Shown here piece by piece: positions 4,792 through 55,696 of a DNA stretch of 57,377 nucleotides. The DNA is from Candidatus Campbellbacteria bacterium (GTDB lineage: Bacteria; Patescibacteriota; Minisyncoccia; Phycocordibacterales; EsbW-18). The stretch's first letter is position 1, and each line of letters begins with the position of its first letter. The translations under genes and the position numbers were made by a program. The notes under the pieces were generated by a model. The model saw only the letters and a list, made by a program, of their open reading frames with translations. It was not told the origin of the DNA and did not search any database. The DNA is taken from contig CP064977.1 of NCBI GenBank assembly GCA_016699465.1, positions 685,739 through 743,115 on the forward strand, read 5' to 3'.

Positions 4792-6087
4792 TTAGTTTTC
4801 TATAGTGGGTGTGTTATAGCTTATTTTTTGAGCGTCTTTAGAGAGTTTAAAAAATATACTTACAATAATAATAAGGCGAACAAATTCCATGGTGATGATG
4901 GAAATGAGAGCGCCCCAGATACCGTATACAGGAAGGAGAATGAAAAGGAGTAGTATCTTTGTTGCGGGGACAATAGTTTGGAGTATATAGAGCCATTTTT
5001 GTTGCATTTGTCCAACAAGAAATTGTTGAAATAAAACTGCCGGGAAAAAAAGTATTACAAGTGAAAATACTTGGGAATAACGAATTGCTTCAATGTAGTT
5101 TGGAAAAAAGAATGTAAAAAACCATGGGGCTATAGCAATATAAAAAAGTACAATACTAAGAGCTCCACAAAATACAAGCAATGCCTTTCGGGGAAGTGTT
5201 TTGTATAGCGGTAACGGATCAGCGGCACTAAACTTAGGCAATGATATTGTTGCAAGCAGTTTACTTCCAAATCGTAATTGTTGTGGTGCCGCAAGTGCAA
5301 TGGTATACAGTGCCATTTGAACAGCTCCTAGGTAGTGAAAAACCAGGAGGCGATCTAGTTGCATTGAGATAGAACCAAGTACATTTATAACACTTAAATG
5401 TTTTCCATAGGTTAGCATTTTTGATTCGGTTTTTTGTGGTGGATTGTATCGTGTAAGCGTGATCTTATAAAAAATCATTCCAGTGAGAGCGCTTATTCCA
5501 AAAAATGCCATCACAAGAAAAGGTGTTGCAGCTGTAAAGAGTGAAACAATTCCAGTCGCGAGTAGTGGGGTAATGGTGTATACCACACCAAAAATAGTTT
5601 CTGTTTTGAATTCCTTTTTTCCGATAAGGAAAGGACTAAAAAAACTACCCGCTTGAGAAAAGGGAATAGTGATACCGATAATCACTAGCGACCACCCAAG
5701 AGCGACGTTTCCTTGTATAAAATAATATACAGCCGAACCCCACGCTACAACAGTCATCAATACACTCCACGAGAGAAACGTTTTGAATCCTTGGCGAACA
5801 ACGCCGTCATTTCCGCGTGCTACGGATTGAATAATGGCAGTTCCCATTCCTGTTAACGAGAATGCGGTTATAATTCCTGCAAACGATTGGATAAATTTAT
5901 AATTACCGAGAGCTTCTTTTGAAATAGTGTTTGCAAGTAGCAGTGTAAGTAAGAATCCAGAGCCAGCACCCATTATTCGTCCGAATGTTATCCAAAAACC
6001 ACCCTTTGCTAGATAGAGCATGTCTGTTTTTGTGTATCGTTCGCTCCAGCGAAGTGCAGCAACCATCTTTTTTTTGAGCTCGTCCAT
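4792..6087 (-). CDS. Polysaccharide/oligosaccharide flippase (Wzx-like, MOP superfamily)
   Basis: 431 aa, hydrophobic throughout with about 12 predicted TM segments. The N-terminus ...YLAKGGFWITFGRIMG.. and its glycan-locus context fit Wzx-type exporters. Confidence 0.7.
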   Translation of the reverse strand: MDELKKKMVAALRWSERYTKTDMLYLAKGGFWITFGRIMGAGSGFLLTLLLANTISKEALGNYKFIQSFAGIITAFSLTGMGTAIIQSVARGNDGVVRQGFKTFLSWSVLMTVVAWGSAVYYFIQGNVALGWSLVIIGITIPFSQAGSFFSPFLIGKKEFKTETIFGVVYTITPLLATGIVSLFTAATPFLVMAFFGISALTGMIFYKITLTRYNPPQKTESKMLTYGKHLSVINVLGSISMQLDRLLVFHYLGAVQMALYTIALAAPQQLRFGSKLLATISLPKFSAADPLPLYKTLPRKALLVFCGALSIVLFYIAIAPWFFTFFFPNYIEAIRYSQVFSLVILFFPAVLFQQFLVGQMQQKWLYILQTIVPATKILLLFILLPVYGIWGALISIITMEFVRLIIIVSIFFKLSKDAQKISYNTPTIEN

Positions 6088-6232
6088 GTGTGGTAGTGTA
6101 CCCCGTTAGAAACAGGAAACCAAATGGTTTTTTAGTTCGTATACAATCACGGGTTCTGCTTGGTGTGTGTTCATATATACCACCGACCGAAGAGTCGACC
6201 ATCCTTTTTTAAGGTGCTATAGTATCTCGCAT

Positions 6233-8717: not shown

Positions 8718-8835
8718 AGGTGGTGTGGTGTGCTTACAAATGAGAAATGGGAGTTGTCCACATTTTCATTAAAAACCTTTTTAAATAAGGGTATATCAGG
8801 ATACAATGTACCTGTTGGAAGGTTTAAATCACGAA

Positions 8836-11800
8836 ATGAAAAACCCGACTTTTTTGCGTTATGTTACAACAGTAGTGCTCGCTCTTTTTCTTGTATGCGG
8901 AACGCTTTTTGCGCATTCAGCACACGCCTTTTCTCTTGATTCTTTTTTGAATACGTCGTCACCACGTTTTGTTCATACAAAGGAAGTCGCAGCATCTTGG
9001 TGGAATGCGTATGCCTACACAGCAAATGCAACTACTGGTCTTGTTGTTGAAGGATTCTTAGCGGTATGTACAGAATCACCAGCTATCCTCGCGTCTCTAC
9101 ACACGACTATTTCAGATATTCTCACAGACGGCGCTGAAGGTGTAATCACAACACTTGTGTATGATACGGTTCCGTTTATTCAAACTGTACAGGATATCAA
9201 TACAACCGTTGCCAATATCTACATCACGGGCGCGCAAGAAACATTTGCATTAGTTGGTGTATATGGTCGCACCGTGTATGAAGCAAATGCATTCGCATCA
9301 AGCATTCTTACAAACGGAGCAGAAGGTGTTATTACACTACTTGCAAACAACGCCACAACATTCGCACGAACACTTTTTGACATCAATACAACCGTTGCCA
9401 ATATCTACATCACGGGCGCACAGGAAACATTTGCATCGATTGCAACGTACGTTGTCAATGTGCGTGATGCAAATATGGCGGTGTCCGCTCTTTTGCTTGC
9501 AGGAGCAAATGATGTTGTGACGACAACTGAAAATAGTATGCATGCTCTTGCGCGCGCACTTCACCAAACGGCGCGTAGTATGCGTGTGGAAGGGCACACT
9601 ACATTTGCCGCAGTATACTCAAGTCTCGTACCGCCACAAGCAACATCAACACAAACACCAGCACCAACACTCTTCCAGAGAGCGCGAACCGCCCTCCGTT
9701 CATGGCTTGGTATCACCACAACGGTCATCACACTACCATCACTTCCAACACCACCAGCACCCGTTCAGCAAGTAACACAGACAACCATCCAAGGACCAGA
9801 ACGCATCATCGAAACACATACGTTCACCAACAACGTTCTCGGTCTTTCACAAGCAGATCTCACGAATGCAATTGCAGGACTTCGTCTCGAGTTGTTGCCA
9901 AAGATTAAACAGGCAATGGGTTCACCAACATACAACCCTCCCGACACCGCATACCTCGAACTCTCAGGTGGCACGCTCACTGGAAATCTTGCAGGCACCT
10001 CACTCACACTCACCAATAATCTTTCTGTTGCAGGTACTTTTGCTGATAGCAGTGGTGATGTGGGAACGGATGGCTACATTCTTCAAACAACAGGCACGAG
10101 TACCAACTGGGTTCCTGCAGCATCATTGAGTGTGACAGGAGATGGTACCTTCTCCACCACATCCGCTGACTACTTCATCACAAGTTCTTCAACCATCGCC
10201 CATGCATCAGGTGTTGCACTCGGCAACGTACTCCAGTGGGACGGAAGTGCCTGGGTTTCAGCCGCGACATCAACGCTTGGCATTGGTACATCGCAGTGGG
10301 TAACAAATAGTTCGGATATTTACTACTCAACAGGCAACGTCGGCATCGGTACTACGTCCCCGTATGCAAAACTTTCTGTCGTTGGTCCGGTTGTGGCTGA
10401 ATCATTTAATGCAACATCAACAACGGCGACGAGTACGTTTGCGGGTGTTTTGTATACTGCGGGTTCTTTTGCGGATAGTACGGGGAGTAAGGGGGTAAAT
10501 GGCATGGTTCTTCAATCAACAAACACTGGTGTGCAGTGGGTGGCCACATCATCACTCGGCATCTCGGGCATCACCGACCACGGACTACTCACCGGACTTT
10601 CTGACGATGACCACACACAATACGCGTTACTTGCCGGACGTTCTGGTGGGCAGACGCTTGTTGGAGGAACGGGGGCAACAGACGATCTCGTTCTTGATGG
10701 TTCTGCCGCAACGGCGGGAAGCGTGACCGTGAGCGAAGACGGAGATATCAATGTGGGTGGATTATTGAGTGTTCGACATAGTAATGTTTCTGCCCCGTAC
10801 TATTCTCTTGCGACGTTTGGATCTGCAAGTACTGGCTATTTGAGTATTTCGCAAGGGGATTCGGTCGGTAGGATTCTCAACTTTTTTTACGGATCTGATA
10901 TGGGGCTTTCGAATGGAAGTAGCCTCTTGTGGTCAGACAGTACAGACGGAGCATTGGGAACAGTAGATACCGGCCTCTCCCGTATCTCTGCCGGAATCCT
11001 CGGTGTTACAAACGGTTCTTCTGGTGGTGGTGCGCTGTATGCAAATTATTTTAACGCAACATCCACAACTGCGACGAGTACGTTTGGGGGACGCATCATC
11101 TCTCCAGGTATCGTTGGGGGAATAACTGGATCTGGGATACTGACACTTGATGGAGACCAGACGGTGGCTGGAAGTGCGTCGGTTGCTGCTAACGGAGTGA
11201 TTTCGTATAATGCGACGCAAAACACTGGGTCAATATCGATCGGGCCTATGAACTACGAGAACCTAGGTAGTGTTGCCTATACCATTGGCGCAGATGCTCG
11301 GTCTGGTCAGCAGGGGATGTTTCTTGCTACTGGTGGGTCGCTGGCGAATCTGGCGATAAGGAACCTGTTCCTTGGTACGGGGAGTACAGATTGGGGTGGA
11401 ACGTTTGTCGCCTTGATTGCTGATGGTGCGAATGCTCTTGCACAACGCAACAGCACGAACGCTCAGAATTTCCGTTTGTATGGCACGTACACTGACACAA
11501 ATAACTATGAACGCTTCACCGCTTCAACAACACAAGGAACCGGTGTTGTGCTCGGCATGGAAACCGCGGGAACAGGTGCGGATAATCTGCATATCATTCT
11601 TTCCCCGGCAGGAACAGGCAACGTCGGCATCGGTACTACGTCCCCGTATGCAAAACTTTCTGTCGTTGGTCCGGTTGTGGCTGAATCATTTAATGCAACA
11701 TCAACAACGGCGACGAGTACGTTTGCGGGTGTTTTGTATACTGCGGGTTCTTTTGCGGACAGTACGGGGAGTAAGGGGGTAAATGGCATGGTTCTTCAAT

Positions 11801-14697
11801 CAACAAACACTGGTGTGCAGTGGGTGGCCACATCATCACTCGGCATCTCGGGCATCACCGACCACGGACTACTCACCGGACTTTCTGATGATGACCACAC
11901 ACAATACGCGTTACTTGCCGGACGTTCTGGTGGACAGACGCTTGTTGGAGGAACGGGGGCAAGCGATACGTTGACTCTTGATGGAAGTCTTGGAACATCG
12001 GGCGCTCTTGTTGTGGGTGCATCGGGAGCATTGCTTGCTCCCGATGGAAATGCTACAACACCTGCGTATTCGTTTGCGAATGCGACGGGAATCGGAATAT
12101 ATAACGGTGGTGGAAACGAGTTGTCGTTTGATGGTGGATCACATCTGTTTACTATCAATGGCTCTAATCTTCTCAACCTTGTTTCAAACAAGGTGAATTT
12201 GGGTAGTGCTGTTGGTCTCAACTGGGGCACGATAGGCGGCTCTATGGATATCGGCCTCTCCCGTATCTCTGCCGGAATCCTCGGTGTTACAAACGGTTCT
12301 TCTGGTGGTGGTGCGCTTATGGCGGACTATCTCTCTGCAACATCAACAACGGCGACGAGTACGTTTGCGGGTGTTTTGTATACTGCGGGTTCTTTTGCGG
12401 ACAGTACGGGGAGTAAGGGGGTAAATGGCATGGTTCTTCGGTCAACAGGCACTGGTGTACAGTGGGCGGCAACGTCAACACTCGGGATTTCGGGCGGGCT
12501 TGGTACGGGGGGGCCGTCGTTTTCGGTCAATAAAAATACTACGAATCAAACCGTGACGGCAAACGTTGCAACGCTTCTAACGTGGAGCACAGAAGTGTTT
12601 GACACAAACAATAACTTTAGTACATCAACAGGAAAGTTCACCCCGACAGTTGCTGGAAAATATATCATCAGTGGTACTGTATATTGCCCCGGGGCGACAA
12701 ACTGTTATGTGTATATCTACAAGAACGGTTCTCTATACTTGCAGGGTGGAGAGGGTAGTGCCTCGAGCGTTGTTGCGAATATCTCGGCGGTTGTCGACAT
12801 GAATGGTTCAACCGACTACGTTGAGCTCTACGGACTCACCGGGGCAACGACCATTTCGGGTGCCGTTGATTCTACCCAATTTTCAGGTGCACTCTTGGCA
12901 CCAATCGATGCCGACGGTGGTGGATGGACGACAAATGGGTCGTACACCTATTTGACCAATGCCACAAATCTGGTTGGTGTTGGGTCAACATCTCCTTCTG
13001 CAAGATTTATCGTCAAAGGGAGCGGAACTGCTACAAACGCCTTTCAGGTTGTTTCGTCAGCAGATGTAAATATTCTTACTGTGTCGGATCTTGGATTTGT
13101 TGGTATCGGCACCACATCTCCCTATGCGAAGCTTTCCGTGGTCGGTGATGTCGCCATCGCAAGTGGCGGTCTCTATGACAACAACGCTTCACGAGGATCG
13201 AGTGGTATGGTGCTCCGGTCGACCGGCACTGGCTTGCAGTGGGTCGCAACATCGACACTCGGGATTTCGAGTGGTTCATCGCAGTGGACGACGAGCGGAT
13301 CGAATATTTATTACAGCACCGGAAATGTCGGCGTCGGCGTAACATCGCCAACATCTGCGGCGCTTGAGATCCAAGGGACGAATGGTACCGGAGCCGTTGC
13401 TCCGTTTGCACTATTTGCACAAGGAGGCAACGGCGGATCAGATGCCACGAACGGGTATAAGGGAGGGGGCTTCTCATTTATCGGAGGGGATGGTGGAGGA
13501 GCTTCTGATGGAACTGACAGCTTCGATATTTCTGGAGGTGATGGTGCTGACTTCGTTGTAACGGGCGGTGCTGGTGGTAGTGCGGATGGTGGGACAACTT
13601 CTACTGGAGGCGCCGGTGGAAGCGTCATCATTAATCCCGGCGCTGGAGGGGTTGCAACTGGCAGTAATCCACAAAACGGCGCTACGGGCAATGTCCTTCT
13701 TTCATATGATCGCGGCAACGTGGGTATAGGAAGCATCAGTAATTCGTCCGCAATGTTGTATTTCTATGATTCGAACCAGGGCATTAAACAATCGAGCGGG
13801 TCGCTTCAGTTCCTCACCGGAGGGAGCCCGCGTTTCTATGTCGCATCGGGTGGAAACGTCGGCGTTGCAACATCGTCTCCGTGGCGGACATTCGCGGTGA
13901 CCGGCACTGTTGGTTTTTCGAGCACGCTCTCTGCTGAAGCTGGGAGTGACAACTATCTTTGTATCGACCCGGTGACGTATGAAGTAACGAATGGCGGGGC
14001 AAACTGTGGTGCGTCGTCGGAGCGTTTCAAAGAGAACATCGTCGATCTTGCCTATGGGCTTGATGAAGTAAAGGCACTGCGCCCCGTCAATTTCACCTAT
14101 AAGAGAGAGATTACGCCGGACGGTTCCACACATATCGGACTTATTGCCGAAGAGGTCGCTCAGATTGTTCCGGAGGTTGTTGAATTTGATGAGGACGGAA
14201 AGCCCGAATCGGTGTCGTACGACAACCTCGTTGCGCTTCTCATTAAGGCGGTGCAGGAGCTCTCTGATAAGGTTGATGTGCTCCTCGCGTCGGCGGGACA
14301 ATCAATTTCTGGTGGTGTGGCACGCTTTGTTGATGCGGTTGTTGACCGACTTACCGTGGGAAGTGCTGAGGAACCATCGGGGATCACGCTTTTTGATGAT
14401 GTAACGGGCGAACCGTATTGTTTGTCGGTGCACAACGGTGCCACGGTGACCCAGGCGGGTGCGTGTGACACGCAACCTTTGGATGAACCAAACGGTGACG
14501 GCTCGGGTGCTGTTTCGGCTTCTGGATCTACCACAAGTGATCCTGTTGTTGACGAACCGACTACCGATGAACCAGGTGGTGATGAACCGGTCGTCGATGC
14601 CACGACGCCAGAGAATCCTCCCGCCGAGGAAGCCCCGGCGGTCGTTGAGCCTTCCAACGAGACTCCTGCCGAGAGTGTTGGAGATGTGGCCCCGTAG
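8836..14697 (+). CDS. Giant secreted Ser/Thr/Gly-rich fibre protein with C-terminal peptidase-S74 intramolecular-chaperone (tail-fibre/endosialidase type) domain
   Basis: ORF 8806..14697, start trimmed to ATG 8836 (MKNPTFLRYVTTVVLALFLVCGTLFAHSAHA, signal-peptide-like). Internal protein repeats, a Gly-rich block (GGNGGSDATNGYKGGGFSFIGGDGGG...). S74-type motif SSERFKENIVDLAYGLDEVKALRPVNFTYK...GLIAEEVAQIVPEVV...SVSYDNLVALLIKAVQEL. Confidence 0.85.
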   Translation: MKNPTFLRYVTTVVLALFLVCGTLFAHSAHAFSLDSFLNTSSPRFVHTKEVAASWWNAYAYTANATTGLVVEGFLAVCTESPAILASLHTTISDILTDGAEGVITTLVYDTVPFIQTVQDINTTVANIYITGAQETFALVGVYGRTVYEANAFASSILTNGAEGVITLLANNATTFARTLFDINTTVANIYITGAQETFASIATYVVNVRDANMAVSALLLAGANDVVTTTENSMHALARALHQTARSMRVEGHTTFAAVYSSLVPPQATSTQTPAPTLFQRARTALRSWLGITTTVITLPSLPTPPAPVQQVTQTTIQGPERIIETHTFTNNVLGLSQADLTNAIAGLRLELLPKIKQAMGSPTYNPPDTAYLELSGGTLTGNLAGTSLTLTNNLSVAGTFADSSGDVGTDGYILQTTGTSTNWVPAASLSVTGDGTFSTTSADYFITSSSTIAHASGVALGNVLQWDGSAWVSAATSTLGIGTSQWVTNSSDIYYSTGNVGIGTTSPYAKLSVVGPVVAESFNATSTTATSTFAGVLYTAGSFADSTGSKGVNGMVLQSTNTGVQWVATSSLGISGITDHGLLTGLSDDDHTQYALLAGRSGGQTLVGGTGATDDLVLDGSAATAGSVTVSEDGDINVGGLLSVRHSNVSAPYYSLATFGSASTGYLSISQGDSVGRILNFFYGSDMGLSNGSSLLWSDSTDGALGTVDTGLSRISAGILGVTNGSSGGGALYANYFNATSTTATSTFGGRIISPGIVGGITGSGILTLDGDQTVAGSASVAANGVISYNATQNTGSISIGPMNYENLGSVAYTIGADARSGQQGMFLATGGSLANLAIRNLFLGTGSTDWGGTFVALIADGANALAQRNSTNAQNFRLYGTYTDTNNYERFTASTTQGTGVVLGMETAGTGADNLHIILSPAGTGNVGIGTTSPYAKLSVVGPVVAESFNATSTTATSTFAGVLYTAGSFADSTGSKGVNGMVLQSTNTGVQWVATSSLGISGITDHGLLTGLSDDDHTQYALLAGRSGGQTLVGGTGASDTLTLDGSLGTSGALVVGASGALLAPDGNATTPAYSFANATGIGIYNGGGNELSFDGGSHLFTINGSNLLNLVSNKVNLGSAVGLNWGTIGGSMDIGLSRISAGILGVTNGSSGGGALMADYLSATSTTATSTFAGVLYTAGSFADSTGSKGVNGMVLRSTGTGVQWAATSTLGISGGLGTGGPSFSVNKNTTNQTVTANVATLLTWSTEVFDTNNNFSTSTGKFTPTVAGKYIISGTVYCPGATNCYVYIYKNGSLYLQGGEGSASSVVANISAVVDMNGSTDYVELYGLTGATTISGAVDSTQFSGALLAPIDADGGGWTTNGSYTYLTNATNLVGVGSTSPSARFIVKGSGTATNAFQVVSSADVNILTVSDLGFVGIGTTSPYAKLSVVGDVAIASGGLYDNNASRGSSGMVLRSTGTGLQWVATSTLGISSGSSQWTTSGSNIYYSTGNVGVGVTSPTSAALEIQGTNGTGAVAPFALFAQGGNGGSDATNGYKGGGFSFIGGDGGGASDGTDSFDISGGDGADFVVTGGAGGSADGGTTSTGGAGGSVIINPGAGGVATGSNPQNGATGNVLLSYDRGNVGIGSISNSSAMLYFYDSNQGIKQSSGSLQFLTGGSPRFYVASGGNVGVATSSPWRTFAVTGTVGFSSTLSAEAGSDNYLCIDPVTYEVTNGGANCGASSERFKENIVDLAYGLDEVKALRPVNFTYKREITPDGSTHIGLIAEEVAQIVPEVVEFDEDGKPESVSYDNLVALLIKAVQELSDKVDVLLASAGQSISGGVARFVDAVVDRLTVGSAEEPSGITLFDDVTGEPYCLSVHNGATVTQAGACDTQPLDEPNGDGSGAVSASGSTTSDPVVDEPTTDEPGGDEPVVDATTPENPPAEEAPAVVEPSNETPAESVGDVAP
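10329..10678 (+). repeat. 350-bp intragenic repeat, copy A
   Basis: Matches 11613-11962 except for the 3 mismatches I found (T/C, C/T, G/A), all synonymous. Confidence 0.9.
11613..11962 (+). repeat. 350-bp intragenic repeat, copy B
   Basis: See copy A. A third partial copy starts near 12337. A further 66-bp identical pair lies at 10971-11036 and 12252-12317. Confidence 0.9.
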
Positions 14698-25593: not shown

Positions 25594-25611
25594 TCATAAT
25601 TATCTAACGAG

Positions 25612-26094
25612 ATGAAAATTGCACTTGGAGCAGATCACGCAGGATTTAAACTCAAAGAATACGTGAGAGATTTTCTTGTTTCTCAAGATCATGAGGTGAT
25701 GGATAAAGGTGCGTTTTCATTTGATGCTGATGACGATTATCCAGACTTTGTATTTTCCGTAGCACATGCAGTTGCTGAGGGAGAAGTGGAGCGAGGAATT
25801 GTTATCGGGAGTTCAGGGCAAGGGGAGGGGGTTGCCGCAAATCGTGTTAAAGGTATTCGTGCACTTGTGTATTACGGAGCACACGAATCTCTTGGGCAAA
25901 CATCGAAAGTTGGTGAACAAAAAGGAATTATCGAATCGAGTCGTGAAGATAATGATTCAAATATTCTTTCACTCGGCGCATCTTTTGTAACACATGAGGA
26001 AGCCAAGGAAGTTATTGAGAAGTGGTTGAATACTCCGTTTACAAATGAGGAACGTCACGTTCGTAGAATTCAAAAACTAGACTCTACTTTCTAG
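25612..26094 (+). CDS. rpiB: Ribose-5-phosphate isomerase B
   Basis: MKIALGADHAGFKLKEYV, GIVIGSSGQGEGVAANR. Confidence 0.9.
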   Translation: MKIALGADHAGFKLKEYVRDFLVSQDHEVMDKGAFSFDADDDYPDFVFSVAHAVAEGEVERGIVIGSSGQGEGVAANRVKGIRALVYYGAHESLGQTSKVGEQKGIIESSREDNDSNILSLGASFVTHEEAKEVIEKWLNTPFTNEERHVRRIQKLDSTF

Positions 26095-29975: not shown

Positions 29976-30013
29976 ATGTCGTCTAGTATACCATGTGCAT
30001 TTTTTCTTTTACT

Positions 30014-30042
30014 AAAAAACACAGGAGGCGCTGCCTCCCGTG
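30014..30042 (-). terminator. Intrinsic terminator of orphan cassette 2
   Basis: Minus strand reads CACGGGAGGC-AGC-GCCTCCTGTG followed by TTTTTT. Confidence 0.75.
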
Positions 30043-30060
30043 TGGTGTAATAGTGAACAT

Positions 30061-30330
30061 CTATCGTGCCCATTCAAAGAAATCTGAAGAGAAGTGATTG
30101 ACTCCCGAAACCTCAACCTCAATTTTGGGCTCAGCTGTGGCGAGCGAGAGAACGAAGCACCCGCCCTTTTCGCGATTCTCATCCGGGACTTGCTGTACCG
30201 AAGTTACCACGAGTTCCCCGGGGTATTTTTCTCGGAAGGTCTCTGGGGCGTTTTTGGAGAATTTTACAACATCTCCAATGTGTACATCCTCGGTGTTGTG
30301 CGGCAGGGCACTGTTGCACAACAGACACAT
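30061..30330 (-). CDS. Hypothetical 89-aa protein (orphan cassette 2)
   Basis: ORF 30061..30486, start trimmed to ATG 30328-30330 (MCLLCNSALPH...), preceded by AAGGAGG with a 6-nt spacer. The longer N-terminus would be translated from promoter repeats. No family recognised. Confidence 0.55.
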   Translation of the reverse strand: MCLLCNSALPHNTEDVHIGDVVKFSKNAPETFREKYPGELVVTSVQQVPDENREKGGCFVLSLATAEPKIEVEVSGVNHFSSDFFEWAR

Positions 30331-30410
30331 GGTGTTGCCTCCTTTCTTTGGTGGACTTGTCTGGTGCAATTTAAGCATATGTGGGTGTGTATGTAAACTG
30401 GTGGAACATG

Positions 30411-30490
30411 GGGCATGTAACACAAGGCATGTAACACAAAGCATGCAACGTGTAACACGTAGCACAAAGCACAAAGTATGTAACATGTAG
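30411..30490. repeat. Array of short direct repeats (GGCATGTAACACAA x2 plus degenerate TGTAAC/TGCAAC copies; AGCACAA x2)
   Basis: TGTAAC or TGCAAC cores at 30417, 30431, 30444, 30451 and 30479. Located upstream of the minus-strand gene at 30061-30330. Confidence 0.6.
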
Positions 30491-30548
30491 TAATACCTTT
30501 TGTTGCTCGCTACACACTACATGTTTTGTGATAGAATTATAGTATGAA

Positions 30549-30670
30549 TCCCGTTAGAGATATGTCGTTTTGTTTTTTTACACCGCACTTTAATATTATG
30601 ATATGGTGAAAAGGCACACATTAATAATGATAACTACGGAAATGCAAGGTATTTCCTATCTCTAACGGGA
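30549..30670 (+). mobile_element. MITE-like inverted-repeat element, copy 1 (122 bp) on the fba start codon
   Basis: TCCCGTTAGAGAT ... ATCTCTAACGGGA. The perfect inverted repeat extends to 15 bp (30548-30562 vs 30657-30671) and is flanked by a direct TGAA (30545-30548 and 30671-30674). Confidence 0.5.
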
Positions 30671-31536
30671 TGAAAACTTTACGTGAAGCAGTACAAGAGG
30701 CACAACAACAGAAACGGGCCATTGGACATTTCAATGTTGCTAGCGTGGAAATGATACAGGCGGTTGTTGGTGCGGGTAAAGATACTGAACTCCCAGTCAT
30801 TGTGGGCGTGTCAGAAGGTGAACGTGATGTGTTTGGAACTACGGCGCTTGTTGCACTACTTCATACGATTCGTGAAAAAACTGGTCGTGAGATATATCTC
30901 AATGCTGATCACACATACAGTGTTGAACGAGTGAAGGAGGCAATTGATGCGGGATTTGACTCAGTAATTTTTGATGGAGCAGAACTTTCTTTTGAGGAAA
31001 ACATTGTGAAAACGAAAGAGTGTGTTGCATACGCGCGCGCATCAGGAAGAGATGTTTTAGTTGAAGGTGAACTTGGATTTATTGGTATTGGTTCAAAAAT
31101 GTTGGATGCATTGCCAGAAGGTGTTGCCGTGACCGATGAAACAATGACGACCGTTGCGGATGCACTTCGTTTTGTACAAGAAACAGGAGTAGATATGCTT
31201 GCCCCAGCTGTTGGAAATGTACACGGTATGCTTAAAGGTGGGCACAATCCACAACTTAATCCAGAGCGTGTTGCCGAGATTGCTCAGGCGGTGGAAATTC
31301 CACTCGTGCTTCATGGTGGGTCGGGTATTACCGACGAAGATTTTACGGCGGCTATTAGTAAGGGGATTTCGATTGTGCATATTAGTACTGAATTGCGTGT
31401 GGCCTATCGACAATCACTCCAACTTTCTCTCCAAGAGAGCCCAGAAGAACTTGCTCCCTACAAATTTATGAAACCTGTTATTTCGGCAGTGCGCGATGTT
31501 GCCGTGCGTCGTCTTAAGCTCTTTGCAGGCTTGTAA
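30670..31536 (+). CDS. fba: Class II fructose/tagatose-bisphosphate aldolase
   Basis: AIGHFNV, LNADHT, LHGGSG motifs. Confidence 0.9.
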   Translation: MKTLREAVQEAQQQKRAIGHFNVASVEMIQAVVGAGKDTELPVIVGVSEGERDVFGTTALVALLHTIREKTGREIYLNADHTYSVERVKEAIDAGFDSVIFDGAELSFEENIVKTKECVAYARASGRDVLVEGELGFIGIGSKMLDALPEGVAVTDETMTTVADALRFVQETGVDMLAPAVGNVHGMLKGGHNPQLNPERVAEIAQAVEIPLVLHGGSGITDEDFTAAISKGISIVHISTELRVAYRQSLQLSLQESPEELAPYKFMKPVISAVRDVAVRRLKLFAGL

Positions 31537-33830: not shown

Positions 33831-33913
33831 GTGTGCGTACTATTGAATGTGTACAAAAATAAAAACTGTTATACTGAAAGGGTGTTATTTTTTTAATCGG
33901 TCTCGCATATGAA

Positions 33914-33976
33914 TCCCGTTAGAGGTTTATTATATTCACGAAAATACTTTTTTTGTACATAACCTATGTAGTATTA
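33914..33976 (+). mobile_element. MITE-like element, truncated copy 2 (left arm only)
   Basis: ATGAA|TCCCGTTAGAGG... with internal similarity to copy 3 (TTATT..TATTCACGAA). The right arm is missing. The next gene starts at ATGAAA 33976. Confidence 0.4.
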
Positions 33977-36738
33977 TGAAATACCCTTTTAAAAAAAACA
34001 CACTTTCTAACCGGATGAAACTGTTTTCACGTATCTGTATCTTTGTTGGCGCACTTCTTGCGGTGGTTCCATTCGTGTCACAGGCCGCTACAGCTTTGGA
34101 TTCTGTGCCTGACGCGGTAAAGAGCAAGTACGCGTTTGATGGTCCTGTTTATGCTGTTGTTAGTGACGGAGCCACGTTGTATGTGGGGGGGTCTTTTACC
34201 GCGGTAACACCGAGACAAATTGATCCACCCTCTTTCTTGAGAAATAATCTCGCAGCAATTGATCTTTCGACGTATACCCTAACATCATTTGCACCGAGTG
34301 TGGGTGGTGGTGTTGACGCCCTCGCTCTTTCGGCGGACGGTGAAACGCTGTATGTGGGTGGTAGTTTTAGTTGTGTCGGAGCGCTGGATGAATTTGATGT
34401 GTGCACAGGTGTTACACAAAATAAAATTGCCGCCTTCGATACTGCGGGTTCCGGAACACTACTTCCATTTAACCCCGACATCTCCGGGGGAGACGTTGCC
34501 ACACTCACACTTTCATCGGGGGCTACCCCAACACTCTATGTGGGAGGCGATTTTTCGCAGGTTGGAGCCACAACACGCAACACTATGGCTGCGTTTGATA
34601 TGACTGACAACGTGGGCACGCTTTTATCGTTTAATCCTGATATAAGTACCGACGTCAATGATAGTGTTCTTTCCCAAGACGAATCAACAATATACGTCAC
34701 GGGCACTTTCTCAACCGTTAATGGGGGCATGCCACAGGAGTATCTTGCTGCTCTCGATGCTGTTTCTGGAGAAAACCAAGACTGGGGGGTTTCTTTGGAT
34801 GGTGGTGGTAATGTTCTTAAAATTTCTTCTGATGGAAATACGCTCTATGTGGGAGGAAGTTTTTCTTCTTTCATGAGACAGTCGGGCGAAGGAGTTCCGT
34901 TTGATGAAGATACAAATGAGGCTCTCGCGACGTTTCCGATAGTTCGAACCAATCAGGGTGGGGGCGGGGGCGGGGATTCCACTATATATGCTGTGATTCC
35001 CGATGGTGATGGTGGGTGGTATATCGGCGGAAGCTTTACGCATGTGGGGACGACGTCTCAGGGGCGTCTTGCGCACATCACATCAGGAGGGCTCTTCGAC
35101 GATACTTTTACACCAGATGTTAATGGGACAGTCTATGCTCTCGAACTCTCTCCGGATGGATCAACACTGTATATCGGTGGAAACTTTGACACCGTTGATG
35201 GAGAAAGTCGAGATTATTTTGCTGCCCTTGATACAAGTGATGGCTCGGTAACTGTGCTCAATCTCTTTTTCGACGGTATTGTACGAGACTTGAAATTTTC
35301 TTCGGATGGGAGTGAATTGTATGTTGCCGGAGGATTTTCAGAAGTTGCCGCATCTTCGCGACGAGGTGTCGCCGCTCTTGATATGTTGGACGAAGGGTCA
35401 CTTCTTCCTTTTGATGCCGATTTGTATGGGTCTGGATATGCATATGCACTCGAGCTTTCACCAGATGATTCTGTGCTCTATGTTGGTGGTGATTTTTCGG
35501 CTGTAAAATATGGAGCGGGACCCGGAACCTTGAGAAACAATAGTGCTGCCTTTACTACCGCGGATGATGGTGCGGTGACAGCATTTAATCCAAATGCCGA
35601 TGGTATTCTTCGTACGCTGGCTCTCTCGGGGGGTGGTGACACGCTCTACGCCGGAGGAGAGTTTCTTACCATAGGAGGAGAAGCTCGGCATGAATTTGCA
35701 GAGCTCGACATGACGACGGGTAGTTCAACGGGTCTCCTTGATGCCAATATTGTGGGCGAAGTCGGAACAGTGCAATCCATTGCGGTGTCTGGTGATGGTG
35801 CAAGTGTGTACATCGGTGGTGCGAATTTTTCCGAAATCGGTGGTGCGTCGCGCGCGTATTTTGGAGAGATTGATGCAAACACGGGGCTTGCAACGAATTT
35901 CAACCCGTCATTCAACGATGAGGTTAGAGCTATCGCGGTTGATTCTGTTGGGGGTACCGTATACGTTGGTGGTAGTTTTACAAAACATGATCCTGAATCG
36001 TCTCCGTATCTTCTTGCAATAAACCTGGCAGATAACTCACACGTAACGTCTTTTGCCCCGATTCTTGATGCCGATGTTTACGCTCTCGCGCTTTCTTCGG
36101 ACGATACAGTCCTCTATGCGGCGGGATATGCGGTTGATGGAGATGGTGCGATCGTGCCAGCTTTTCTCAAAGGTATTGATACGAGCGATGGAGATGCCAC
36201 CGCCTTTGCACCGGATGACATGAAAAGCATCTACGCGATGGCACTTAGGTCGGATGACTCTGAGCTCTTTGTCCCAAATTTTGATCAAAATGTGACCAAC
36301 AATACCAACGTACTTGTCTTTGATGCGGACGGAGATGTGTCACTTGACGTTACTGCACCCGTTATCACACTTCTTGGTAGTTCAGATATTGAACTTACTG
36401 TTGGTAGTACATACACGGATGCCGGTGCTACTGCTGAGGATAATGTGGATGGTGATATTACTGCGGACATTGAAGTTGGTGGAGATGTCGTTAATCCATC
36501 TGTTGTTGGTATCTATGTTATTACGTACAACGTCCAGGATAGTGAAGGTAATTCTGCGACGGAGGTGACGCGAACAGTTACTATAGTGAGTCAAGAAGAG
36601 GGTTCTGGTGGTAGCTTGACGGGAAGAAGTGGAGCGGTTGGTAGTGGATCTGGAAAAGATCTTCGGTTTCTTCTTGAAAAATTAACTGAAGTGTTACGAC
36701 AATACCTCATGTTGTTGCTTGCAGAAAAACAACAATAG
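33976..36738 (+). CDS. Secreted delta-60-repeat/beta-propeller protein with C-terminal Ig-like (DUF5011-type) domain
   Basis: N-terminal TM/signal segment. At least 12 repeats of the type TLYVGGSF..V.G..R..LAA.D...G....FNP. Then PVITLLGSSDIELTVGSTYTDAGATAEDNVDGDIT...VGIYVITYNVQDSEGNSA. Confidence 0.75.
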   Translation: MKYPFKKNTLSNRMKLFSRICIFVGALLAVVPFVSQAATALDSVPDAVKSKYAFDGPVYAVVSDGATLYVGGSFTAVTPRQIDPPSFLRNNLAAIDLSTYTLTSFAPSVGGGVDALALSADGETLYVGGSFSCVGALDEFDVCTGVTQNKIAAFDTAGSGTLLPFNPDISGGDVATLTLSSGATPTLYVGGDFSQVGATTRNTMAAFDMTDNVGTLLSFNPDISTDVNDSVLSQDESTIYVTGTFSTVNGGMPQEYLAALDAVSGENQDWGVSLDGGGNVLKISSDGNTLYVGGSFSSFMRQSGEGVPFDEDTNEALATFPIVRTNQGGGGGGDSTIYAVIPDGDGGWYIGGSFTHVGTTSQGRLAHITSGGLFDDTFTPDVNGTVYALELSPDGSTLYIGGNFDTVDGESRDYFAALDTSDGSVTVLNLFFDGIVRDLKFSSDGSELYVAGGFSEVAASSRRGVAALDMLDEGSLLPFDADLYGSGYAYALELSPDDSVLYVGGDFSAVKYGAGPGTLRNNSAAFTTADDGAVTAFNPNADGILRTLALSGGGDTLYAGGEFLTIGGEARHEFAELDMTTGSSTGLLDANIVGEVGTVQSIAVSGDGASVYIGGANFSEIGGASRAYFGEIDANTGLATNFNPSFNDEVRAIAVDSVGGTVYVGGSFTKHDPESSPYLLAINLADNSHVTSFAPILDADVYALALSSDDTVLYAAGYAVDGDGAIVPAFLKGIDTSDGDATAFAPDDMKSIYAMALRSDDSELFVPNFDQNVTNNTNVLVFDADGDVSLDVTAPVITLLGSSDIELTVGSTYTDAGATAEDNVDGDITADIEVGGDVVNPSVVGIYVITYNVQDSEGNSATEVTRTVTIVSQEEGSGGSLTGRSGAVGSGSGKDLRFLLEKLTEVLRQYLMLLLAEKQQ

Positions 36739-53144: not shown

Positions 53145-53150
53145 TATGAA

Positions 53151-53273
53151 TCCCGTTAGAAATCACTCATGTATGTTCGTGCCCAATATTCAAAAAACGT
53201 CGATATATTATTCGTATACTCACGAAGGTGTGATAACAATGGAAACGCACCACGTTTCTAATTTCTAACGGGA
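53151..53273 (+). mobile_element. MITE-like inverted-repeat element, copy 3 (123 bp) between pheS and pheT
   Basis: TCCCGTTAGAAAT ... ATTTCTAACGGGA. The 14-bp perfect inverted repeat (53150-53163 vs 53261-53274) is flanked by a direct TGAA (53147-53150 and 53274-53277). Confidence 0.5.
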
Positions 53274-55696
53274 TGAAAGTTTCACGTGCATGGCTTCAAA
53301 CATTTTTTGAAAAACCACTTCCCGAAGTGAGTGAGCTTGAACATGTTCTCACATTCGGTGCATTTGAAATTGAGGGAACAGAAAAAGTTGGAGAAGATAC
53401 CGTGCTAGATGTGAAAGTGTTACCTAATCGTGCACACGATTGTTTGTGCCATCGGGGTATTGCAAAAGAATTCTCTGTTTTGTGCTCCATACCGTTATCG
53501 CACGATCCGCTGTCGGGTCCGGTTCCTTCGTTTGAAAAAAATGGAGTTCTACACGTTTCTGTTGAAAAAGAAAATGCGTGTCCTATATACCAAGCAGCTC
53601 TTGTGAAGGGTATTACCGTTGGCCCATCTCCGAAGTGGCTCTCAGAGCGACTCGAAACACTTGGTCAACGTTCAATAAACAATGTTGTTGATGCGACAAA
53701 CTTTGTCATGCTCGAACTCGGACAACCACTCCATGCATTTGATGCACAAAAGTTGGGAGATGCGGATGGCGCAAAATCAATTCGTGTGCGTATGGCACGT
53801 GCGGGGGAGAGTATCACTGTTCTTGGGGGCACAACGTACGAACTAGATGAAACTATTCAACTCATTACTGATGCATCAGGAGATACACCACTCGCAATTG
53901 CGGGTATTAAAGGTGGAAGTCAGGCAGAAGTGGATACAACAACGGTAGACATTGTTTTGGAATCAGCGAAGTTTCATCCAACACTCACGCGCAAGGCGTC
54001 GCAAAAATTAAAATTGCGCACTGATGCGTCACATCGTTTCGAAAATGAGATTCCCGATGAATTACCACTGTACGCACTTCAAGCTCTTGTTGCGCTTATT
54101 GTCGATGTGGCAGGAGGGCGCGTTAGTGGATATGGAGGTTTTGAGAGGGCTCGTGCGGCACTTCCATACAAGATCGGCATTTCATCACGTGAGGCAAATA
54201 AACTTCTTGGAACAGCTCTGTCAGACACCGAGCTCTCACAGATTTTTGATCGGTTTTCATTCTCGTATACAAAAATAGAAAATCCACGAGAGGTGATTGT
54301 GCAAAAAGCTCGAAGTGTCATTGGTGCTCCGTATAAGCGTATGGCACGAATTCGATATGATACCCCAGAGAGTTTCAACTGCTCGTCCTTGACTGCATGG
54401 TGTGCTATTGAGGCGGGATTTTCACTTGGTGTTGCGCGTATTGCAATTGATCAATATGCGTATCTCGATGAAATTACTGAGAGTGAACTCCAGCCGGGCG
54501 ATTTTGTATTTACTAACACAGAAGTGGTGCGTACTATTGACGGAGAAAATTATTCCACAGCCTTGGACAGAATGGTCAAAGACGAAGCAATACGGACACA
54601 TACACTTGAATATGTCCCAGGAACTGACGTGGGGCACGGTGTTGATCATATGGGTATCTATGTCGGTGATGGAAAAGTTGTTCACGCGTCATCCGATCTC
54701 GGTGGAGTTGTTGAAGAAGACCTTGCAACAAGTGCTATTTTTGCAAAAGAAAAATGGTATCGCCGACTAGTGTCTGATACGACGCCAAGATTCTCGGTTA
54801 CGGTGCCATTTGAGCGTATGGATATGCGTTTTAGCGCTGACGTGTGTGAAGAAATTGGACGAGTGTATGGCTACGAACATGTTCGCGCGCAAGACTTACC
54901 TACTGCGTCACACCGTGTTGAAGTAAATCCTATTTTCGTCGCTCAAGAAGTTGTACGTAAGGTTCTCGGTGAATGTGGATTTTTTGAAGTATATTCGTAC
55001 TCATTGTGTGAAAAAGGTGATATACAACTTGCAAATGCACTCGCAAGTGATAAGGCTTTTGTGAGAAGCTCGCTTGCATTGGGTATTGGTGAATCGCTCG
55101 CAAAGAATGAATACTATGCGCCGCTCCTCGGTCTTTCGGATGTAAAGATTTTTGAGATTGGAAACGTATACAATGCAACAGGAGAACATTTGCGCGTGTG
55201 TCTAGGTGTGCGTCCTCTTACTCAAGCAAAAAAATCTGAGAAGACAAACGCAATGCTTCTTGAGGCTAAAGAAAAACTCGAGTCGGCATTTGGCGTTGAT
55301 GTGAACGAATATATTTCTGAAGAGACGCTCGAGTTTGATCTTGGTGTTATTGCACAAACACATATCCTCACACAGCCGGAGTTTGCACCCGTTGCACAGG
55401 CTACTCAGTTTGTACCGATGTCATCGTATCCGTTTGTGTTGCGTGATATTGCAGTGTGGATTCCTGATGGTACAGGAAAGGGAGAAGATATTGTGGCTCT
55501 AGTAAAAGAGAAAGGTGGCACACTTTTTGTTCGTGCTGATTTATTTGATACGTTTACCAAAGATGGTCGCACATCGTACGCGTACCACCTTGTATTTCAG
55601 TCACGTGAAAAAACACTTTCAGATGAAGATATTAATAGCATTATGAATGCGGTCACGGAAGCATTGAATGCGCGTGATGGTTGGGTAGTACGATAG
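53273..55696 (+). CDS. pheT: Phenylalanyl-tRNA synthetase beta subunit carrying an inserted NlpC/P60-like domain
   Basis: B1 (MKVSRAWLQTFF...), B3_4 (NVVDATNFVMLELGQPLHAFD), a B5-like segment, core (FSADVCEEIGRVYGYEHV), and FDX-ACB C-terminus (FVLRDIAVWIP). The insert at aa 337-505 has GAPYKRM, FNCSSL, PGDFVF, HMGIYVGDGKVVHASS. Confidence 0.9.
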   Translation: MKVSRAWLQTFFEKPLPEVSELEHVLTFGAFEIEGTEKVGEDTVLDVKVLPNRAHDCLCHRGIAKEFSVLCSIPLSHDPLSGPVPSFEKNGVLHVSVEKENACPIYQAALVKGITVGPSPKWLSERLETLGQRSINNVVDATNFVMLELGQPLHAFDAQKLGDADGAKSIRVRMARAGESITVLGGTTYELDETIQLITDASGDTPLAIAGIKGGSQAEVDTTTVDIVLESAKFHPTLTRKASQKLKLRTDASHRFENEIPDELPLYALQALVALIVDVAGGRVSGYGGFERARAALPYKIGISSREANKLLGTALSDTELSQIFDRFSFSYTKIENPREVIVQKARSVIGAPYKRMARIRYDTPESFNCSSLTAWCAIEAGFSLGVARIAIDQYAYLDEITESELQPGDFVFTNTEVVRTIDGENYSTALDRMVKDEAIRTHTLEYVPGTDVGHGVDHMGIYVGDGKVVHASSDLGGVVEEDLATSAIFAKEKWYRRLVSDTTPRFSVTVPFERMDMRFSADVCEEIGRVYGYEHVRAQDLPTASHRVEVNPIFVAQEVVRKVLGECGFFEVYSYSLCEKGDIQLANALASDKAFVRSSLALGIGESLAKNEYYAPLLGLSDVKIFEIGNVYNATGEHLRVCLGVRPLTQAKKSEKTNAMLLEAKEKLESAFGVDVNEYISEETLEFDLGVIAQTHILTQPEFAPVAQATQFVPMSSYPFVLRDIAVWIPDGTGKGEDIVALVKEKGGTLFVRADLFDTFTKDGRTSYAYHLVFQSREKTLSDEDINSIMNAVTEALNARDGWVVR

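Follow-up and report, generated by a model that had tools for sequence, protein, structure and literature searches.

A mobile inverted-repeat element on start codons in Candidatus Campbellbacteria and other Patescibacteria, with a GIY-YIG nuclease cassette as its likely parent

Introduction

The closest described system to the element considered here is that of the Ssn nucleases and NTS repeats, exemplified by SsnA of Neisseria meningitidis (Chenal et al., Nat Commun 2025, PMC11893778). Ssn proteins are single-domain GIY-YIG proteins of 94 aa, and they are site-specific nucleases of single-stranded DNA (ssDNA) that cut beside hairpin repeats (NTS/SRM). The authors noted a repeat-gene-repeat layout similar to that of an insertion sequence and a parallel with REP/RAYT, and reported no mobility; the main text mentions neither the Candidate Phyla Radiation (CPR) nor start codons (PMC11893778). 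Here we analyse a stretch of 57,377 nt from a Candidatus Campbellbacteria bacterium (assembly GCA_016699465.1, contig CP064977.1, positions 685,739 to 743,115 of the forward strand), hereafter the window, in which a short inverted-repeat element sits on the start codon of fba, the gene for class II fructose-bisphosphate aldolase. An earlier reading of the same sequence, the original prediction, had described it as a cassette similar to a miniature transposable element with inverted repeats (MITE).

MITEs such as Correia/NEMIS (Neisseria), ERIC, and RUP are 100-150 bp long, carry terminal inverted repeats, and have a short duplication of the target on their flanks. Transcribed together with the neighbouring gene, they give its mRNA a long hairpin, and they are derived from larger elements by internal deletion. 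The element at fba is mobile, as had been proposed, but it is not an orphan MITE, since its family has a form with an open reading frame (ORF) for a GIY-YIG nuclease. We consider it probable that the copies in the window are non-autonomous, ORF-less derivatives of such a cassette, which targets start codons, and that the host gene is translated by termination and re-initiation.

Insertion on the fba start codon

Positions 30544-30674 of the window read ATGAA-TCCCGTTAGAGAT…ATCTCTAACGGG-ATGAA, and the next base is A. As described earlier, the ends form a perfect inverted repeat of 15 bp (30548-30562 against 30657-30671) with TGAA on either side. The body measures 122 bp instead of 121 bp when the terminal A at 30670 is included, and the duplication is then TGAA, of 4 bp. 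This last A of the right arm is also the A of the fba ATG. Rare family members that lie away from an ATG carry 4-bp duplications (CTTA, TTTA, CTGA); therefore, a 4-bp TGNN duplication combined with a terminal A of the element is favoured, in support of the earlier proposal that the terminal A rebuilds the start codon.

Relatives were compared at fba on the contigs of the closest Fba proteins (90, 83, and 81% identity); loci outside the window are designated here by L numbers. L001 and L002 read ttttgtgatagaattatggtATGAAAACTCT at this site (…GATAGAATTATGGT-ATGAAAAC…), which is the empty-site sequence that had been predicted. The window counterpart is ttttgtgatagaattatagtATGAA-(121 bp)-ATGAAAACTTT, and 126 bp are absent from the two relatives. 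The site is empty in L003 and L004 too (0 of 4 relatives carry the element), and GATAGAAT-N6-ATG is retained at the empty sites of L001, L002, and L003. At the surface-protein locus, where the third window copy resides, L001 and L003 have a plain ATGAAA. At the pheS-pheT junction, about 74 of 77 related metagenome contigs are empty, typically with TAA-T-ATGAAA, and the element is sporadic (about 3 of 77, e.g. L190). Target duplication together with empty sites is thus found at all three loci, and the conserved leader that the original prediction had set against mobility is not found in relatives at any of them. The size and content of the fba copy are those of a MITE as well (121-122 bp, with only ORFs of 21 and 12 codons inside). 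The extra 126 bases at fba are a real insertion of mobile DNA placed precisely on the start codon. The element went in after the A and before the TG of this codon, TGAA was duplicated, and the terminal A rebuilt the ATG.

Both nucleic acid forms of the fba copy fold stably in comparison with shuffled sequences, with -40 kcal/mol and z = -4.7 for single-stranded RNA and z = -5.0 and -5.5 for the two strands of single-stranded DNA.

The pheT start is occupied in at least six lineages by different subfamilies (the window, L073 at 555, L097 at 5535, L117 at 6292, L132, and L190), and L132 is exceptional in that its cassette occupies the spacer between pheS and pheT and is 14 nt upstream of the pheT ATG. 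The distribution at this junction suggests that it has been hit recurrently. L097 and L117, whose PheT proteins are 75% identical, share 13/13 bases in both arms and about 59% of the interior.

A family of elements on translation starts

The window holds three copies and one remnant in its 57 kb (Table 1). The homologous copy that had been placed at the pheS/pheT junction is present there. The one placed at 33910-33980 is also real, but it extends further than was thought, and its right arm, TCTAACCGG, has one mismatch. The spacing from ATG to ATG in the three copies is 126, 127, and 106 nt. The 9-mer CCCGTTAGA occurs six times at the positions that had been listed, against 0.25 expected, and none of 100 shuffles reaches six; the occurrence at 6102, however, belongs only to a half-element remnant. 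This remnant is the right end of an element in the sense of the minus-strand gene 4792-6087, and it lies 13 nt upstream of the start of that gene. The compensatory differences between arms that had been pointed out (AGAGAT/ATCTCT versus AGAAAT/ATTTCT) are confirmed, and across the family the arms are at least 13 bp long and positions 11-13 covary.

The family was scanned for with the pattern TCCCGTTAGA-N78-108-TCTAACGGGA in one genome per species, with the flanks not specified; by our own estimate, about 17-34 chance matches are expected. The invariance of the 10 arm bases follows from this pattern, which required exact arms. At least 120 genome loci match, nearly all from CPR/Patescibacteria, and the original prediction that copies exist outside the window is borne out. 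Carriers among the matches listed are Saccharibacteria, which are frequent, many Parcubacteria groups, Levyi- and Kerfeldbacteria, and a few Omnitrophota and other bins. Outside the window there are at least 154 arm pairs in 124 loci. The family counts cover 140 copies, namely those of the loci among the matches listed and of the window. In line with the anticipated duplications near start codons, an ATG directly abuts one end in 129 of the 140 copies, and a perfect ATGNN repeat stands on both sides in 88 of the 126 oriented copies. The duplicated NN is gene-specific (AA 73, GA 20, AG 19, and others), an ORF of at least 60 aa lies downstream of 91% of the copies, and the host genes are functionally unrelated.

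The copies are on start codons far more often than the availability of targets predicts. Of the ATGAA sites in the window, 8 are annotated starts and about 22 are other non-coding positions; therefore, about 27% of copies would be predicted on starts, and about 92% are observed there (binomial p ~1e-60). What the sites have in common is the start of translation and not that of transcription: 55 of 121 copies come directly after an upstream ORF in the same direction, and 16 of these are at stop/start overlaps of the ATGA type. Targeting of transcription starts is ruled out, with 45% of copies internal to operons. Past ATGRR, no target information is found on either side of the family copies. 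The motif TTTCACGT, which lies downstream of all three window copies, was tried as an additional target signal and rejected, as it accompanies just 2 of 125 copies in the family as a whole.

The orientation of the element is equally regular. A subterminal hairpin followed by CCTR adjoins the gene-proximal arm in 53 and the distal arm in 6 of the 59 classifiable copies (p = 2e-10), and its stem covaries across the family (GGAAA/TTTCC, GGTCGT/ACGACC, GATTG/CAATC, GCAAAA/TTTTGC). Scored with the nhmmer family profile, the fba body reaches 46 bits in sense and 26 bits in antisense orientation. The family sits on the start codons of hundreds of genes across Patescibacteria, almost always in one orientation.

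Tandem or nested copies occur in L096 (5472-5711), L020 (7673-7800), L112 (3870-4170), and L113 (7264-7575), among them a variant subfamily with the termini CCCCGTTAGA…TCTAACGGGG. Every tandem unit in L096 and L020 is accompanied by an ATGAA of its own, which is what repeated insertion into the regenerated target would produce. A model of reverse transcription or microhomology, by which copies within a genome should agree in their duplicated NN, was also considered; the concordance of NN within a genome (12 of 20 versus 0.39 expected) is too weak to use, and the model was not retained.

A full-length form that encodes a GIY-YIG nuclease

A full-length copy with the same termini and a transposase gene had been suggested as an object of search. 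A full-length form does exist, but its gene is that of a GIY-YIG nuclease, and no copy that encodes a transposase was found among the loci examined. The nuclease form was met in L132 while pheS-pheT junctions were being tabulated: the arms CCCGTTAGAGAT…ATCTCTAACGGG bracket an ORF of 88 aa, and L112 has the same layout. Both ORFs contain GIY-YIG domains (Pfam E ~1e-16 to 1e-17; 6e-17 reported). Six more cassette loci have the same termini (L205, L214, L224, L225, L226, and L229).

The cassette is about 280 bp long, with the termini TCCCGTTAGAGAT…TTCCTATCTCTAACGGGA, and its layout is as follows: host signals, ATGNN-TCCCGTTAGAGAT-(5-6 nt)-ATG, 84 codons, TAT CTC TAA CGGG-ATGNN, and the host gene. 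The nuclease gene fits the element closely. In the 8 ORF-bearing copies the ORF starts a few nt past the left arm and stops in or just after the right arm. The TAA that stops the nuclease ORF belongs to the right arm and precedes the regenerated host ATG by 4 nt, and in the six further loci the next gene begins 5-6 nt after the nuclease stop, with no exception. Perfect ATGGA duplications flank the cassettes of L205 and L214; in L225 the site is a TAG-ATGAAA junction between the genes for 6-phosphogluconolactonase and 6-phosphogluconate dehydrogenase.

The nuclease is a protein of 84 aa with PF01541 as its only domain. A protein search returns 373 homologues from several CPR lineages; the 120 listed, from Nomurabacteria, Paceibacterota, and Woesebacteria, are mostly 83-84 aa long, with 80-89% identity. 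Differences in the ORF are distributed over the three codon positions as 86/51/240, a pattern that indicates purifying selection. The predicted structure has the GIY-YIG fold (predicted local distance difference test, pLDDT, 90.6). Residues invariant in the alignment include Y4, Y6, Y17, R27, H31, and E51. Variants of 91-92 aa begin with M-D/N/S-PVRD, a start that results when the left arm is read from the captured host ATG.

Short copies and cassette have about 20 terminal bases on each side in common. The 13 bases of the fba left arm recur in L214, L224, and L229 as well as in the two cassettes named in Table 1, and the right-arm TAA of the fba copy is the stop codon of the nuclease gene in full-length cassettes. 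The second short ORF of the fba copy ends in …SYL*, matching the nuclease C-terminus …GASYL*. Inside the cassette, a conserved long-range pairing, TACGGAAGCGCC…GGCGCTTCCTA, is the counterpart of the short copies' subterminal hairpin. Judged by these sequence correspondences, the GIY-YIG cassette is the likely parent of the short copies.

A different small GIY-YIG gene lies between direct copies of the hairpin repeat ATTCCGCAGTAGCTCTCCGCCAGCTGGCGGAGGGAGAGC on a Wolfebacteria contig (L018, 2150-2560). CPR genomes therefore hold more than one pair of nuclease and repeat, as this locus has the repeat-gene-repeat layout of the Ssn type.

Upstream ORFs and a proposed mode of expression

Gene starts in the window have almost no Shine-Dalgarno motif; most have TAnnnT 5-8 nt before the ATG or lie at a stop-start junction, which suggests that the genome relies on leaderless initiation and re-initiation. 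The -10-like box at fba is its putative promoter. Between the left arm and the ORF of the cassette, no promoter or ribosome-binding site is recognisable. Based on this anatomy and on the frame statistics given below, we infer that a cassette inserted in sense orientation on a start codon borrows the initiation signals of the host gene. These signals are taken to be a leaderless 5' AUG (fba) or stop-start coupling (pheS/pheT), because Shine-Dalgarno motifs are absent. Ribosomes would enter at the left ATG and come to a stop at the TAA of the arm or at an ATGA overlap; they would then re-initiate 4 nt downstream at the regenerated host ATG, and the host protein would still be made.

In copies that lack the nuclease ORF, leftover short ORFs may act as a relay. 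At pheT, ribosomes would pass from the pheS stop to an upstream ORF (uORF) of 40 codons (53146-53268, from the left ATG to the right-arm TAA) and then over TAA-CGGG-ATG. At fba, they would translate the uORF of 21 codons that had been predicted from the stranded ATG, which is indeed present, and then one of 12 codons that ends at the arm TAA. By analogy, the nuclease would recognise the terminus hairpin in ssDNA and cut it to mobilise full-length and short copies alike. The translational coupling is a proposal from anatomy and frame statistics, the part of the nuclease in mobility one from analogy alone.

The reading frames of the short copies are consistent with entry at the left ATG. In 36 of 95 copies the frame of this ATG runs across the whole element without a stop, compared with 57 of 475 (12%) for other frames (p = 2e-8), and the open uORFs stop at the arm TAA (25) or at ATGA (10). 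A uORF that is in frame with the host gene is open in only 1 of 23 copies, versus 35 of 72 when out of frame (p = 6e-5). Such a near absence of open in-frame uORFs is as expected if ribosomes read in and an N-terminal extension of junk sequence is harmful. The left ATG is lost in about 20-30% of copies.

Two other modes of expression were tried and rejected. An outward promoter in the right arm, from which a leaderless mRNA would begin anew at the right ATG, fails on the three window copies, where no consistent TAnnnT lies at a fitting distance. In-frame translation, as in the Rickettsia palindromic elements, fails on the spacings of 126, 127, and 106 nt, on the stops present, and on the single open in-frame case in the whole family.

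Weighing the alternatives

Several observations count against deriving the window copies from the nuclease cassette and against the proposed relay. No nuclease gene of the cassette family lies within the 57-kb window, and beyond the ~20 terminal bases the similarity of the window copies to the cassette is not significant (z ~1.8 for fba, lower for the others). The uORF stops early in 59 of the 95 short copies, the fba copy included, and in these copies simple stop-start coupling is therefore not the whole story. For most full-length ORFs of 84 aa the captured ATG stands in another frame, and the open frames could in part be relics of an ancestral ORF rather than selected. The p-values quoted above are upper bounds on significance, inflated because related copies are not independent. 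A comparison of G:U with A:C in the stems finds the sense strand more stable in 71 copies versus 55 (p = 0.01), with arm positions 11-16 symmetric, and gives weak indication of a constraint at the RNA level. Finally, mobilisation may be the work of an enzyme other than the nuclease: GIY-YIG enzymes, which act by hydrolysis of DNA, to our knowledge have no strand-transfer activity, and a 4-bp duplication is the classical signature of a DDE transposase. These last two points would suit an ordinary MITE that is mobilised in trans by a DDE-type transposase, with the GIY-YIG gene as a passenger or a second parasite and with the association with starts as the product of target choice and selection. 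Perfect terminal inverted repeats are likewise typical of DDE elements, and the weak internal similarity of short copies to the cassette agrees with such an origin. We nevertheless regard it as unlikely. No arm pair 0.5-3 kb apart encloses a transposase in the roughly 0.96 Mb of CPR DNA that surrounds at least 150 copies, and the window contains no transposase; the nuclease ORF fits the termini exactly in 8 copies, which is not expected of a passenger; and the short copies carry a subterminal hairpin that has its equivalent in a conserved pairing within the nuclease gene.

A domesticated element that benefits the host, either as a 5' stabiliser or translational regulator or as a repeat/nuclease pair that controls recombination or DNA uptake, is somewhat less likely again. 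It would explain why arms are perfect and interiors nearly random, as in L097 and L117, and why uORF frames appear selected, and it has a precedent in Neisseria, where NTS cluster near particular genes and SsnA modulates transformation (PMC11893778). Arm conservation, however, stems partly from the exact arms of the search pattern, and sporadic occupancy at pheS-pheT and fba and the unrelated functions of the host genes fit a parasite better. It is very improbable that the element is removed or skipped after transcription, whether by intron-like excision, by a cut at the hairpin base that yields a leaderless mRNA, or by a hop from AUG to AUG. The helix does place two identical AUGNN side by side, an internal AUG that lacks a Shine-Dalgarno motif needs a special route in a leaderless host, and a bypassed mobile insert is known from phage T4 gene 60 (bioRxiv 10.1101/2022.08.31.505936). 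Against this stand the lack of a ribozyme or intron match in Rfam and of a bulge-helix-bulge geometry, the need to translate the protein of the full-length form from the same RNA, the uORF-frame statistics, which imply read-in rather than skipping, and the loss of the left ATG in a good part of the copies. Hardly any weight is left to the reading that fba, pheT, and other genes have a conserved, structured cis-regulatory leader, similar to a riboswitch or attenuator and not mobile. A stable fold and covarying stems are what such a leader would have, but it is contradicted by the orthologous sites of close relatives, which are empty and have the exact target sequence, and the target duplication and the unrelated host genes speak against it too. 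Rfam at the gathering threshold finds only tRNA in the whole window, and at E up to 10 the region 30480-30720 gives only noise (best Ysr100, 21 bits versus a cutoff of 47). A structured leader RNA was rejected on these grounds.

The derivation of the window copies from a start-codon-targeting GIY-YIG cassette therefore remains the reading that we prefer. A broader proposal has a considerable chance of being right, though less than an even one: the cassettes may form a class of prokaryotic mobile element without prior recognition and, at about 280 bp, among the smallest that encode themselves, with a GIY-YIG nuclease as the sole gene, integration at start codons, expression from host signals, and restoration of the host gene by a stop codon in the terminus, and with the window inserts as ORF-less derivatives. 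The family is apparently undescribed and is widespread in the ultra-small bacteria of the CPR. In the literature searched there is no description of it or of any bacterial element that targets start codons, in agreement with the original prediction.

Features of the window

The coordinates of the fba copy and of the other copies are collected in Table 1.

Table 1. Features of the element at fba and related copies in the window
Feature	Position	Strand	Basis or remark
-10-like box of fba, TAGAAT	30532..30537	+	sequence read; 6 nt upstream of left ATG
Left target copy ATGAA; original fba start position, now uORF start	30544..30548	+	empty sites hold a single ATGAA
Element body, 121 bp	30549..30669	+	missing from orthologous sites in L001-L004
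Left terminal arm TCCCGTTAGAGAT	30549..30561	+	same as left terminus of ORF-bearing cassettes L205, L225
Right terminal arm (T)ATCTCTAACGGGA	30657..30670	+	TAA at 30663-30665, 4 nt before fba ATG
Subterminal hairpin GGAAAT-gcaaggt-ATTTCC	30638..30656	+	RNA and DNA folds; adjoins right arm
uORF1, 21 codons, MNPVRDMSFCFFTPHFNIMIW + TGA	30544..30609	+	starts MNPVRD…, cf. N-terminus M-N/D/S-PVRD of 91-92-aa nucleases
uORF2, 12 codons, MITTEMQGISYL	30627..30665	+	stops at right-arm TAA, 4 nt before fba ATG; translation predicted
fba, class II fructose-bisphosphate aldolase, 288 aa	30670..31536	+	Pfam F_bP_aldolase E=6e-77; its ATGAA is the right duplication copy
Second copy, ATGAA-(122-bp body)-ATGAA, pheS-stop/pheT-start junction	53146..53277	+	sequence, nhmmer profile
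Third copy, more decayed, ATGAA-(101-bp body)-ATGAA	33909..34019	+	precedes 907-aa surface protein
Half-element remnant (…GGTTTCCTGTTTCTAACGGGG)	6101..6129	-	nhmmer E=0.009, model positions 99-126

An rpiB-like gene (25612-26094) is preceded by …TTATCTAACGAG-ATGAAA at 25598-25616, that is, by a right arm with one mismatch on an ATGAA start. The match occupies the 18-nt spacer after gap (GAPDH), and it is probably the stump of an old copy. The chance that the 9-mer stands, with at most one mismatch, before one of about 37 starts is estimated at about 0.004.

The spacer between pfkB and fba (29976-30543 plus the element) is 694 nt long here, compared with about 126 nt in L002 and 34 nt in L003, and the MITE therefore accounts for just 126 nt of the excess. 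The rest contains a minus-strand ORF of 141 aa with no Pfam match (30061-30486), a terminator-like hairpin near 30022-30050, and short repeats of the GTAACA/GCACAAAG type that run over 30410-30500. In the PheT beta chain (53273-55696), residues 364-416 give a weak NlpC/P60 match in Pfam (E=2.5e-9), which is unexpected for PheT, and no single stretch passes alone. An ORF of 1963 aa at 8806-14697 has a G+C content of 0.51-0.52, versus about 0.44 in the rest of the window.

Implications

The host genomes are about 87% coding and offer almost no neutral DNA. The start codon is the one position at which a 4-bp duplication together with a terminal A spares both the upstream signals and the host ORF. 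If the reading holds, the family provides the first evidence of mobility, in the form of duplications and empty sites, for a unit of small GIY-YIG gene and hairpin repeat, and it points, for bacterial insertion sequences, to a nuclease chemistry that is new to them. The nuclease family may also bring new specificities to the ssDNA-cutting toolbox that has been proposed for Ssn enzymes.

The copies amount to hundreds of natural constructs in which the AUG of an essential gene lies about 125 nt inside the mRNA, behind a strong hairpin and with no Shine-Dalgarno motif, and they are ready test cases for leaderless initiation and re-initiation. Gene callers set wrong starts or extend the genes that carry the element, as with the third window copy (a call of 920 aa instead of 907 aa); a similar discrepancy affects the nuclease (calls of 92 aa versus 84 aa).

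Comparison with known systems

The family resembles the Ssn/NTS system in its tiny single-domain GIY-YIG protein (84 aa here, 94 aa in Ssn) and in a gene that lies between hairpin repeats, which are also amplified as oriented, ORF-less copies. It differs in the architecture of the repeats: each Ssn flank has its own hairpin of 20-50 nt, whereas here the arms pair across the whole unit. The SRM consensus HGTCWY…RNCYNB is matched in 0 of 126 copies, 0 of 2 full-length cassettes, and at no site in the window, and NTS, as a positive control, is matched. Among solved structures, those closest to the nuclease in sequence and fold are UPF0213 (BH0048; UPF0213 entries 1zg2 and 1ywl) and the nuclease domain of Slx1. 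Target duplication, empty sites, a start-codon position, and translational coupling, all described or proposed here, are not reported for Ssn (PMC11893778).

Free-standing GIY-YIG homing endonucleases of the I-TevI/Seg type, which exceed 200 aa, have a DNA-binding domain, and spread through the repair of double-strand breaks with neither inverted repeats nor a duplication, were rejected as a match for a single domain of 84 aa between inverted repeats with a duplication; the NCBIfam model of the group I intron endonuclease gives 20 bits on the nuclease versus a cutoff of 56. An integron attC-like site was rejected on inspection, as the cores GTTAGA/TCTAAC stand in reverse order to RYYYAAC…GTTRRRY.

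In contrast to the present family, Correia/NEMIS, ERIC, and RUP have TA or AT-rich intergenic sites as targets, stand in no fixed relation to start codons, and descend from parents with genes for DDE transposases. About 92% of the copies described here are on a start codon, in a single orientation, and the sole candidate parent encodes a GIY-YIG nuclease. The REP/BIME-RAYT and IS200/IS605-PATE systems (HUH Y1) are similar in that a hairpin-recognising enzyme is accompanied by many short palindromic derivatives, and in that insertion is orientation-specific at a short asymmetric target beside a hairpin. Insertion of IS200/IS605 elements leaves the target unduplicated, and these elements have hairpins in subterminal position in place of terminal inverted repeats; we know of no start-codon targeting by them or by REP/RAYT. 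Identity with PATE or REP/RAYT fails on the presence of a duplication, on the true terminal inverted repeats, and on the GIY-YIG nature of the associated ORF.

T4 gene 60-type bypass was rejected as a model: the two ATGs match, but the gap would fall at codon 1, with no nascent peptide, there is no stop after the left ATG, and the uORF statistics point to read-in. We have not seen described the splitting of a cistron start into a parasite ORF or uORF followed by the host gene. The family shares with Rickettsia palindromic elements, inteins, introns, T4 gene 60, and mitochondrial bypass elements the property that a parasite persists in a compact genome because the synthesis of the host protein is left intact. 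Those inserts are translated in frame, spliced, or skipped, whereas for the element at fba and its relatives two coupled cistrons are proposed.

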